Virus record (IMG/VR): IMGVR_UViG_2909303794_000011
Coordinates: 1-51,950 of that record
Strand: one strand, 5' to 3'
Length of the DNA: 51,950 nucleotides
Origin: a virus
Taxonomy: Duplodnaviria; Heunggongvirae; Uroviricota; Caudoviricetes
Shown here: one piece after another, positions 45,001 to 51,950 of the stretch
Numbering within the stretch: position 1 is the stretch's first letter
Layout of the letters: the number at the start of each line of letters is the position of its first letter
Program-made: the position numbers

Positions 45001-48000
45001 TTGAAGCGTTAATGCATGATGCAACAGAAGCGTATTGCCAGGACATTCCCGCACCACTGAAACGCCTTCTTCCTGACTATAAACGGATGGAAGAAAAAAT
45101 AGACGCCGTAATCCGTGAGAAATACGGGTTACCCCCGGTTATGAGTACACCCGTGAAATATGCCGATCTCATCATGCTGGCAACCGAACGCCGCGATCTC
45201 GGGCTTGATGATGGCTCTTTCTGGCCTGTACTGGAAGGCATCCCGGCAACAGAGATGTTCAACGTGATTCCACTGGCACCGGGCCATGCCTACGGGATGT
45301 TTATGGAACGTTTTAACGATTTATCGGAGTTACGCAAATGCGCATGAATGTTTTCGAAATGGAAGGGTTTCTTCGCGGGAAATGTGTACCGCGAGATCTG
45401 AAAGTGAACGAAACAAATGCTGAGTACCTGGTACGTAAATTCGACGCGCTTGAAGCTAAATGTGCGGCACTGGAAAACAAAATAATACCAGTGTCAACTG
45501 AACTGCCACCAGCAAATGAAAGTGTTCTGTTATTTGATGCTAATGGAGAAGGCTGGCTGATTGGCTGGCGTTCTCTCTGGTACACCTGGGGACAAAAAGA
45601 AACCGGAGAATGGCAGTGGACATTTCAGGTCGGGGACCTTGAAAACTTCAATATCACTCACTGGGCAGTAATGCCCAAAGCGCCGGAGGCTGGAGCATAA
45701 TGACCACATTTACCAATAAAGAACTGATTAAAGAAATCAAAGAACGAATCAGCAGCCTAGAGGTTCGAGACGATATTGAGCGCCGTGCTTATGAAATTGC
45801 TCTGGCATCGCTGGAAGAGGAGCCGGTGGCATGGCTGCATTCAGACAATGGCTTAGGTATTCCGGCAATAACCAGGAGCAAAAACATTGCTGACAGTTGG
45901 TTATCAATGGGCTGGTATGTTCAGCCGCTATATATAGCCAAGCCAGTACTGGTGGTGCCAGATGCTCGTCCGTCTTTAAATAATGGCATAGTCGGTTTTG
46001 ATGAAGGCTGGAACGCCTGCCGCGCCACCATGCTTCATGGTGCCAAACCTGTAAGCCAGACTTACAAGTTGAACAAGCTGTCGGGCAACTCTCCGGTAAC
46101 TCAGGATGGTTGGATAAGCTGTAGTGAGCGAATGCCGAACGATAAACAGTATGTTTGGTGTTGGGGTAAGTCTTACGGCTGGACTGAGTGCGATACCTTC
46201 GAAGGGTATTACGATTGGTCGAGAAACAAATGGTGGGCAGTTACTGACGATGGGGAAGAACCGGCATCGAAAGTAACCCACTGGATGCCGCTACCGGAGC
46301 CACCGCAGGAGGTGAAGTAATGAACAACTTAATGACAACTAAACAAGTCGCCGACTTCTGTGGCGTTTCAGTATCGACCGTTCTTCGCTGGAACAGCGTA
46401 AACAGGAGAACTGGCCAGAAATACAGGCCTGACTTTCCAGATCCTGATATTAAATCCTGCCCAAATAAATGGGCATCACGCAAGATATACAGGTTTGCTG
46501 GAGTTATTGAGTGATGGGTATTAGCTCATATCAGAACTAATACCCATCAATGACACAGAGCCAACTACCCACCCTGTGTCAGGGGCTAACTTTTAACACC
46601 ATAATTCACCGCTAGATAAAAACTGTATTGCATTGCACGAGCGGCGCAGCATTATCAGTTAGAGTGTCTTTACCTTGTTAGGCTCCACAGTTCGCACTGT
46701 CCAACGCCTGTCACTTTCACACGCTGCGCCTTCGAGAATATTCATTTAATCGCTGATAACGAACATCTTGCTCCAGTTGTGGAGCAGCTTGAACAATTTG
46801 AAGCAAGCATTGCCCCAACTCTCGAGGCCTCCAGTGTTGTTCGGCAATCACGGCATTCAGCAGGGATAGAGCGTCCGCAGGATATCGGCTGCAAATATCT
46901 GATTCTAGCAAAAGGCGAACGTCGTAGCTAAGGTGTTCGAGCGGTTGCAGCCAGTCCTGCACCACTGCCAAAGCCGCCGGAAATTCACCTCGGGCAGCAA
47001 TCACCATACGAGTCAACGATTCGGATATGCGTGGGGTGGCCAAGTTGCGGGACTTTGGCCAAACCTGTTGCCAAAATGGCTGGACACGATTTTTCCAATA
47101 CTCCTCGCGCTGATCGCCCGCACCTTCAAGTGCCTGGTATAACGCCTGCGCGGCTACCTCCAGACCTTCTTGTGGAAGAGCACTAATTGCCGTTCGGAAC
47201 TCCTCCACGGTATATCCCTCGGTAGGGCCCAGAGCTGCATAAGTCAGGAAAATAGCGAATTGCTGCCGGTGCTCGCCAAGATCAGAATAGTGATTGGCGC
47301 TCTCCAAAAAATCTGACTTGAAAGCTATCAGCAACGGTTCATACAGGCGTGGCGACCAGAGGAAGCCTTCCCACACAGCTTTTGCTTCGACGGGATTACT
47401 CCAAGCAAACAAGGGCAATAGATACTGTTCGGTCCAAGGTCGATCTACGCGAAAAAATGCGATCAGCCGCGACCCCAGCAACACCCGACCATGGCGGAAT
47501 AGCTCTATCTGTACATTACACAATTTGGTGAAAAGTGTTTTCAATTCAACAGGAAGCAAATCATTGTCATTCGGGTTCTGTTTGAACCATAGGGTGATCA
47601 GTGATTGCGTGACATGCCCAATGGGATGATTGATCGCCGTAGAAACAGGATCATAGGTCTCAATTCCGTTTCGAATGGTGCTAGACTCTGGGCTTGTTTC
47701 TATCATCAGAACCCGACGACAAAGGGCCAGTAGAATCTCCTCGTGGCAGAGGATGGTCTTCGAAGCCTCCTCCATCCACCAAGTGACAGCGTGGGAAATC
47801 TCCTGAAGTACTGCGTCAGGCATGTCAAGCACCAACGGTGCGGCGTACCGCCACGAACGCAAAATCATCCCTGGTTCAGCCCAAGTCTGCAGAGCTTCAC
47901 GCCACCGACCAACAGGCCACACATCATCTTGTGATAGTTTACGTAACGCATACAGACTGTGAAAAAAGCGCGTACGGCAAACATCACTCCAAGTGTCCTC

Positions 48001-51000: not shown

Positions 51001-51950
51001 TGCAATGATGTCCGACCAACTGGTTCCCTGCTTCCTTCCTTAGTAAAAAGCATATCGGAACCGTTGTTCATAGAGATAACGTATTTTATAAGCTCTTCAA
51101 CCGGTTCAATAATGGGCCGCTTTAGCGGTTCGCCTGTTATATCCCCTGTCTTATGTCGTTCTGGTGGTACAGTCCATATTTTATTAATGAAATCAAAATC
51201 GTCCACCTTGGCAGTAATTAGCTCTGAACTACGGCAACCAAAATGCAGCAATAGTTTAATGAAGGCCCGGTATTTAGGAACCATTCGAGAACCATCGATC
51301 GCAGCATAAAGGATTTTAATTTCATCATGTGTCAGAAACCGTTTCTTCTGACCTTTACGGATATCCATATCTTTACCCGTGATATCCGACAGCGGGCGAG
51401 TTTCAATGAGCTTTCTCTTATACGCCCAGACATGGGCCTGCTTTGCGTTAATTAGCAATCGGTCTGCTATTGCTGGAGTCTTAGTGCTAAGAGGCTCCAG
51501 GACTTCTAACCAATCATGCAATGTAGCTGCATCGTGAGGGATATTCCCGATTTTAGAGAACAGGTGCAGCTCAAACGAGCGGAGTATCTGTTCAGAACCT
51601 TTTTTATTTTTTACACAATATGCTTCATACCAAGCACGGATCACAGATTCTACCGTCATGGCTTCAGTAGCTTTACGTTTTTCTGCCAGCTTGACCAATC
51701 GTGGATTGCGGTTTGACTCGAGTTCACCACGAAGACGGATAACTTCTTCTCTGGCCTCTTTTAGTCCAGTTGCCGGGTAAGTTCCGATATCAAGGCGCTC
51801 ACCTTTCCCTGCCCATTGATAACGATATTGGAACACTACGCGACCTTTCGGTGATACTCTGACAGACAGACCATCACGATCGGATTTAACCAAAACCTTA
51901 TCACGTTCCTTTCCAACGACTGAACGCAACCACGCATCAGACAGCGCCAT

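Follow-up and report, generated by a model that had tools for sequence, protein, structure and literature searches.

The sequence considered here is a 51,950 nt stretch of DNA, IMG/VR record IMGVR_UViG_2909303794_000011 (positions 1–51,950, hereafter the window). Its gene content, determined by open reading frame (ORF) and domain scans, is that of a lambdoid, toxin-carrying (cdt-converting) prophage of E. coli. This prophage integrates in the 5' end of prfC, and its integration and excision module makes up the right end of the window. The module has a small excisionase-family gene, termed xis here, an integrase gene, int, and between them a gene with a SIR2 domain, dsr1 (Table 1). An ORF listing covering positions 43000–51950 shows that xis and int are convergent and that their facing stop codons are 4212 bp apart. 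The SIR2 gene occupies 3828 bp of this distance and leaves intergenic remainders of 202 and 182 bp. Besides dsr1 there is no ORF of 70 aa or more in the interval; a 68-aa ORF overlaps the dsr1 start. A preliminary description of the window had placed the end of xis at 46514 and int about 4.2 kb away on the opposite strand, with the SIR2 gene between them, and these coordinates and strands are confirmed. Comparison with related prophages shows that the space between xis and int is a standing feature of the phage lineage and that dsr1 did not split an adjacent pair.

Table 1. Features of the xis-dsr1-int module and of the remainder of the prophage (window positions)
Feature	Position	Strand	Description
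xis	46320–46514	+	64-aa excisionase-family DNA-binding protein
xis 3' flank	46512–46594	+	16-nt-arm hairpin (inverted repeat) at 46512–46549, then hairpin with T-run at 46551–46594
Variable cargo segment (Dsr1 cassette)	46565–50681	.	Differs among otherwise near-identical prophages
dsr1 (defence-associated sirtuin 1)	46717–50544	-	1275 aa; N-terminal SIR2 NADase domain, long C-terminal sensor region
int-dsr1 intergenic region	50545–50726	-	TATAAT at 50608–50613 (- strand); Shine-Dalgarno AGGAGGA upstream of the dsr1 ATG
int-side boundary motif copy	50664–50700	-	AATCTAGCAGTCCGCTTTGTTCGGAGTTCGGACATTATG
Small hairpin, TTGCGT...ACGCAA	50704–50722	+	Directly 3' of the int stop; kept in most cargo classes
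int	50727–51950	-	P4-type tyrosine integrase, 407 aa; the ATG is the last window base
yfdQ/yfdR-like genes and two DUF551 genes		+	Run into xis
cI	42036–42728
cII-like gene and Rha/Ash-type regulator gene			Present in the window
cdtC	1–573	-	Cytolethal distending toxin
cdtB	570–1391	-	Cytolethal distending toxin
cdtA	1388–2209	-	Cytolethal distending toxin
Cif (cycle inhibiting factor) homologue gene	3333–4184	-	Product looks like a type III secretion effector
OspG/NleH-like kinase gene	4408–5298	-	Type III secretion effector-like; near cdt

Genes of the integration and excision module

The int product has the three domains of a P4-type integrase: an arm-binding domain (DUF4102; Pfam Arm-DNA-bind_3, PF13356, E 9e-16), a central SAM-like domain (Phage_int_M, PF22022, E 1e-7) and a catalytic domain (Phage_integrase, PF00589, E 4e-17). 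It also matches PHROG 1. The gene is transcribed inward from the end of the prophage proximal to the attachment (att) site. This site had been predicted to lie beyond the right edge of the window, upstream of int, and it is found there by alignment to an unoccupied locus. The alignment comprised the occupied junction of a RefSeq genome, NZ_CM132250.1 (L001, a 99.9% identical chromosomal locus), the empty yjjG-prfC region of E. coli K-12 and the attP of phage cdtI. The common core, GGGTGAGAAATAAT, is 231–245 bp upstream of the int ATG, outside the window and within the first prfC codons. A diverged version of the prfC 5' end is carried in the phage attP arm. In Stx phage records the same 14 bp bear the depositors' annotation 'duplication due to insertion', at 230–243 bp from int. 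The stretch of approximately 230 bp that separates the att core from the int ATG (positions 10252–10495 in L001) contains several TGTACA-centred repeats, CTTGTACAAATAA and TTTGTACATTATGTACAAGCACATGTACAG, which are candidates for arm-type Int sites or for operators overlapping the int promoter. At the other end of int, the small hairpin at its stop codon looks like a terminator of the + strand.

The ATG of xis overlaps the stop codon of the upstream DUF551 gene by 1 nt (TAATG), which implies that xis is translationally coupled to it and closes the early-left operon. This is the expected place for a lambdoid xis. The product matches PHROG 1553, 'excisionase' (E 8e-36). The term 'AlpA-type', which the preliminary description applied to this protein, does not hold at the family level, as Pfam gives no match to Phage_AlpA (PF05930) at E ≤ 0.01; it holds for the broad MerR-like winged-helix fold. 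The Pfam matches to the protein are HTH_17, HTH_23 and MerR, all under their gathering scores, and there are weak, sub-threshold matches to TIGR01764 and Xis_Gifsy_1. An AlphaFold model made with 12 homologues displays a MerR-like winged-helix fold, with a predicted local distance difference test score (pLDDT) of 87. Foldseek matches of the model include RacA, BldC, MerR N-domains, the RdfS excisionase (TMq 0.65) and Pukovnik Xis. The TM values for RdfS and Pukovnik Xis are 0.54–0.65, and every Foldseek E-value is 0.018 or higher. A sequence search of PDB gives one chance match to LacI and no close relative. The 64-aa protein is a small basic DNA-binding protein, a MerR-like winged-helix member of an excisionase family, and its family membership, fold and position suggest that it is this integrase's directionality factor. 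L001 has no annotation for the xis ORF (4621–4815, equivalent to 46320–46514 of the window), and the 100% identical DUF551 gene upstream is annotated there as two partial pseudogenes. In phages cdtI and 2H10, RefSeq does label this xis gene, as 'excisionase'.

The two hairpins downstream of xis fold as RNA with an energy of -32 kcal/mol (z -4.7). A terminator-like site is present at positions 46572–46584 and is followed by GCTAACTTTT. The second hairpin with its T-run is probably the terminator of the early-left transcript. An RNAalifold consensus of this flank has almost no energy (-0.56 kcal/mol), and an Rfam scan of positions 46200–51950 shows no meaningful family, the only match being mir-3204 (E 0.037; 26.5 bits compared with a gathering score of 90).

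The product of dsr1 matches Pfam SIR2_2 at residues 123–269 (E 9e-23), the NCBIfam Dsr1 equivalog NF041818 at residues 1–1271 (2053.9 bits, cut-off 1400) and the PADLOC Dsr1 model PDLC02183 over 1–1275 of 1275 positions (2731 bits). The match is full length and above the trusted cut-off, and the SIR2 domain is N-terminal on a single large protein without a partner gene. The exact product sequence is public as 'anti-phage defense-associated sirtuin Dsr1', and RefSeq names a 100% identical gene dsr1. Judged by these matches, which like those of int and xis lie well outside what chance would give, the SIR2 gene is Dsr1, a known single-gene anti-phage system that depletes nicotinamide adenine dinucleotide (NAD+). 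The TATAAT upstream of dsr1 is a perfect -10 hexamer, and a good -35 element is absent when the sequence is read by eye. A promoter may function in this region, and dsr1 may be expressed in the lysogen.

Of 5426 complete E. coli genomes, 75 contain dsr1, in 71 of them at full length. The copies are mostly 94–100% identical in DNA. The 6.25-kb block of xis, dsr1 and int is likewise present in 71 complete E. coli genomes, with approximately 99.8–99.9% identity, and roughly 3,500 E. coli genomes match its flanks. These equal counts of 71, which need not be of the same genomes, suggest that dsr1 occurs in E. coli almost only in this prfC-prophage slot. Outside E. coli, Dsr1 homologues are in unrelated contexts. 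Among the homologues of 45 other bacterial species (41–82% identity) there is no such xis nearby, and three of the 45 loci have an integrase within 6 kb, which is distant (25–27% identical).

Contents and boundaries of the xis-int interval

Related loci were defined by an integrase at least 97% identical (n = 81); 80 IMG/VR loci were fetched and analyzed with L001–L003 and the window. In 78 of the 81, xis (90–100% identical) is on the strand opposite to int and convergent with it. In loci with both genes the interval measures 1076–4226 bp and always has content. Three int loci lack a complete xis; they were considered as empty or adjacent states and rejected, as all are deletion derivatives. 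The intervals form 18 classes that have no mutual nucleotide similarity. The xis gene remains 90–100% conserved beside the same integrase across all 18, and it is present and convergent in every intact locus regardless of the cargo. The preliminary description had stated that the same gene, if present uniformly in related prophages, would indicate a stable ancestral component; the outcome is the opposite, with 17 other unrelated cargoes between the same flanks.

Eight of the 18 classes match defence models and ten have no Pfam or PADLOC match. Dsr1 is found in 18 loci, BovA/Borvo in eight, a dGTPase in five, a DUF4365/Aga-REase-like (nuclease-like) protein in three, a dCTP deaminase (dCTPase) in two and an 870-aa protein with dsRBD and HNH domains in two. 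PDC-M01A/B and PDC-S59 are represented by one locus each. The ten classes without a match, several of which are membrane proteins, account for 41 loci. The 870-aa protein (class 11; L018, interval 103–2715) has a dsrm motif and a C-terminal HNH_2 nuclease, an unusual pairing for a candidate defence protein. Cargo orientation is constant within every class, and about half of the classes point each way.

A comparable picture is seen in named phages. In phages cdtI, Ayreon and 2H10, and in many phages of the Stx1a and Stx2c groups, both flanks are matched at approximately 96% and the middle is unmatched. The order in their annotation is xis, a different gene, int. The slot contains Borvo in cdtI and Ayreon and a 239-aa gene without a known family in 2H10; in the Stx2c and Stx1a phages it contains the dGTPase (class 5) or an unannotated 517-aa membrane protein (class 15). 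Conserved flanks, diverse content and known defence systems among the cargo make this a hotspot in the sense of Rousset et al. 2022.

Pairwise BLAST shows that homology of the window to the 17 other class representatives ends at approximately 46510–46565 on the xis side and 50661–50745 on the int side. The int-side breakpoints are sometimes within the last int codons, which results in integrases of 405, 407, 411 or 412 aa according to class. No transposase ORF is present in 46515–50726. The flanks of dsr1 show no target-site duplication and no terminal inverted repeats, and the longest direct repeat is 7 bp, so the marks of an IS or transposon insertion are lacking around dsr1. Base composition was considered as a sign of a foreign origin of dsr1 and rejected: its GC content (51.9%) is that of the window mean (51.3%), and low GC values belong instead to int (44.5%), xis (44.1%) and the other cargoes (31–43%). 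A second variable segment is located directly upstream of xis (45354–46301). It spans both DUF551 genes and is deleted or replaced in several relatives, with the flanks 42863–45353 and 46302–46564 conserved around it.

The junction listing reveals a hairpin motif of approximately 35 bp at the slot boundaries. Its consensus, written from flank to cargo, is AATCTGACAGTCCGCTTTGAGCnAGnAGCGGAcATT; it is located after int and, inverted, after xis. The exact sequence CAGTCCGCTTTG is found once in the window. In other cargo classes an inverted copy is present 51–57 bp past the xis stop, e.g., at 2215–2250 in L024 and 3984–4020 in L018, and in the Dsr1 class no xis-side copy is detectable. A motif profile (nhmmer) built from 13 int-side copies only was searched against approximately 180 kb of class representatives. 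Beyond the int-side copies it matched ten sites only, all on the opposite strand and 51–57 bp past the xis stop. In the 7-bp stem, which was defined manually, 78% of cells are paired compared with 35–45% in slid controls, and there are 13 compensatory cells in four of the seven pairs. Inversion of cargo between the inverted motifs was tested with a negative result, the orientation being fixed in each class. An exact 17-mer of the motif is present in 18 IMG/VR contigs only, 14 of them from this phage family. In the other four the stretch fetched lacks an int and a xis of this family, and in the two inspected the motif adjoins the 3' side of tail-fibre genes (L144, 11880–11915; L150, 300–350). 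The motif is probably not specific to this integrase, and it is read here as a generic 3'-end or mosaic-boundary module, perhaps a terminator.

Interpretation of the interval

The proposed explanation is that the gap between xis and int is an accessory-gene slot whose contents are swapped by recombination in the flanks, and that dsr1 in this position protects the lysogen from phages. The probability of this reading as a whole is estimated at about 85%. With xis ending the early-left operon and int running inward from the att end, the two 3' ends converge, and the space between them would serve as a dedicated place for accessory genes, holding dsr1 in this prophage. Its contents would be swapped among close phages by recombination in the int 3' end and in the approximately 50–80 bp after xis. 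By analogy with work on E. coli Dsr1, the C-terminal repeat sensor may recognize the major capsid protein of an infecting phage. Recognition would switch on the N-terminal SIR2 NADase, and the resulting depletion of NAD+ would block phage replication. A lysogen protected in this way from other phages would in turn protect the prophage.

The 18 unrelated classes, the defence matches among them and the Dsr1 homologues found elsewhere without these flanks indicate that dsr1 is exchangeable hotspot cargo. In none of the relatives are xis and int adjacent, and cargo of some kind always occupies the interval; their separation is therefore taken as the ancestral layout of the lineage, with replacement of cassettes. 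The suggestion of a cargo insertion into the recombination module is therefore retained insofar as dsr1 is exchangeable cargo, but not as a single event that broke up a contiguous xis and int.

Several points weigh against this explanation. It assigns no role to the boundary hairpins. A sigma-70 promoter scan gave no full match in 50545–50726 and no convincing dsr1 promoter, with counts equal to shuffled expectation; lacking a clear sigma-70 promoter, dsr1 could depend for its expression on read-through from int, and co-transcription of the two genes is possible. The tested EcDsr1 and ECOR17 alleles may not be the exact window allele. The excisionase assignment is made from family, fold and position, with no solved or tested close relative, and S. 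aureus prophages are known in which a gene next to a defence gene was mis-annotated as 'xis' (PMC11087260). Class frequencies mean little since the IMG/VR loci are not independent samples.

The two points on xis bear on a very unlikely alternative, in which the 64-aa protein is a regulator or inhibitor tied to the defence cargo, like Ith of S. aureus phages, and the separation of xis from int is a matter of mislabelling. The S. aureus precedent (PMC11087260) speaks for it, as does the absence of any curated excisionase model matched above threshold, and the gene is convergent to the cargo with the same geometry as the ith/tha pair. However, the protein is 90–100% conserved beside 18 unrelated cargoes on either strand and with one integrase type. 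An inhibitor specific to a cargo should vary with the cargo, and the invariance of xis argues that it serves the integrase; its family, fold and operon position also fit a recombination directionality factor. That dsr1 is a stable ancestral part of the recombination module, and not exchangeable, is hardly credible. Two diverged dsr1 alleles (approximately 94% and 99–100%) are accompanied by slightly diverged int and xis genes, which suggests some residence time, but the 17 other cargoes between the same flanks (int at least 97%, xis at least 90%) already refute this view and the Dsr1 homologues elsewhere lack these flanks.

The boundary motif raises the alternative of a dedicated, site-specific movement of cargo at the 35-bp hairpins, similar to integron attC sites and possibly carried out by the adjacent tyrosine recombinase, in place of recombination in the flanks. 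The motifs are inverted at both slot edges in at least ten classes and nowhere else in those loci, the stem has compensatory changes, and four classes lose homology to the window exactly at the motif, at 50682. The remaining evidence does not have an integron-like character and makes this alternative highly improbable. The int-side breakpoints are spread over approximately 85 bp, some inside the int coding sequence where they alter the C-terminus. Both orientations occur among the classes and the cargoes appear to have their own expression signals. The Dsr1 class has no xis-side copy, and the presence of the same motif by tail-fibre genes in unrelated contigs without such an integrase fits a generic 3'-end or terminator boundary. 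Arrival of dsr1 by insertion of an IS or transposon between xis and int has a probability close to nil: an IS3-family transposase gene is present elsewhere in the window (29952–30839) and one E. coli genome (H70) has IS1203 inside dsr1, but the interval has neither a transposase ORF nor a flanking inverted repeat nor a direct repeat longer than 7 bp, and 17 other cargoes share these boundaries.

A broader proposal is that the slot is purpose-built, that the hairpins direct the exchange or insulate expression, and that the ten unannotated classes are unrecognised anti-phage systems. It is unlikely when taken as a whole. Among these classes are several membrane proteins, as well as the 239-aa gene found in phage 2H10. 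If the proposal were true, the slot would be a resource for discovery, and it would show that tailed phages can have a structured exchange site delimited by motifs.

Prophage setting and known systems

The window opens exactly at the cdtC stop codon. From this and from comparison with phage cdtI, the prophage is expected to extend approximately 1 kb further to the left (dinI, orf31, attL). The presence of cdt and a Cif homologue in one prophage places two cyclomodulins, CDT and Cif, alongside an anti-phage gene. The IS3-family transposase gene (rve, HTH_21; 29952–30839, + strand) is inside the prophage, and most neighbouring large ORFs are on the opposite strand. It may represent an IS insertion that affects prophage viability.

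E. coli Dsr1 is reportedly to be traced to Gao et al. 2020. The described proteins (EcDsr1, WP_029488749.1; ECOR17 dsr1) have the same 1275-aa length, N-terminal SIR2 domain and full-length model match; no difference is detectable at the sequence level, although the tested alleles may not be identical to that of the window. A Dsr1 cloned in B. subtilis causes a transient depletion of NAD+, and phi29 is blocked (bioRxiv 10.1101/2021.12.14.472415). E. coli carrying the ECOR17 dsr1 together with 300 bp of upstream sequence is protected from T4 lacking nrdC.5 (PMC9391042). The sensor of EcDsr1 is reported to be homologous to that of Avs7, and a Drexlerviridae major capsid protein to be the unique trigger of EcDsr1 toxicity (2026 preprint, PMC12803255). 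A capsid-triggered depletion of NAD+ by the window's dsr1 would be in line with these studies. The gene itself is already known and annotated; its slot context is what is added here, and it is a defence hotspot of the expected kind.

Defence hotspots of P2-like and P4-like elements are reportedly also treated by Vassallo et al. 2022. Diverse defence genes are present at fixed positions in P2-like phages and P4-like satellites (Rousset et al. 2022, PMC9122126), and P2 hotspots also hold defence systems at fixed positions (bioRxiv 10.1101/2022.05.12.491691). As in the slot described here, flanks are conserved in close relatives and one position holds variable genes, both known and unannotated in defence. 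The P4 slot (psu-int) also adjoins an integrase. The differences are that the window is a lambdoid prophage at prfC, that xis and int form the flanks with their 3' ends facing each other, and that the cargo is mostly a single gene and is bracketed by an inverted hairpin motif. The tha/ith pair of S. aureus (Rostol et al. 2024, PMC11087260) is similar in that a defence gene of the prophage lysogeny module is beside int with a small convergent or antisense 'xis', but the 'xis' of that pair inhibits its own cargo and has no excisionase role, whereas the small gene of the window is invariant across 18 cargoes.

No earlier description of this lambdoid xis-int slot was found in the literature searched, which yielded general prophage-hotspot papers only, with one likely relevant paper outside its coverage. 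In lambda, xis is distal in the leftward early operon and Int belongs to the tyrosine recombinases and has an arm-binding domain; xis and int overlap and are co-directional, and attP is downstream of int. The window shares the distal early-left xis and the arm-binding tyrosine integrase, but int is inverted, att is upstream of it and a cargo slot lies between the 3' ends. Modules of the KplE1/CPS-53, HK620 and Sf6 type, with int transcribed from the att side, are said to be covered by Panis et al. 2010. In these modules the recombination directionality factor (TorI) and int flank attP and are co-directional. There, too, the int start codon faces att, and the yfdQ/yfdR/yfdS/DUF551 genes upstream in the window are homologous to CPS-53 genes, but the families of the integrase and of the directionality factor differ.

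For annotation, xis is not to be expected beside int in phages of this lineage. With int and xis as anchors, at least ten short candidate defence genes that lack annotation are easily found in the slot. Toxin conversion and immunity to phages would be carried on the same element, since phages of pathogenic E. coli that convert with cdt or Stx belong to this prophage family.

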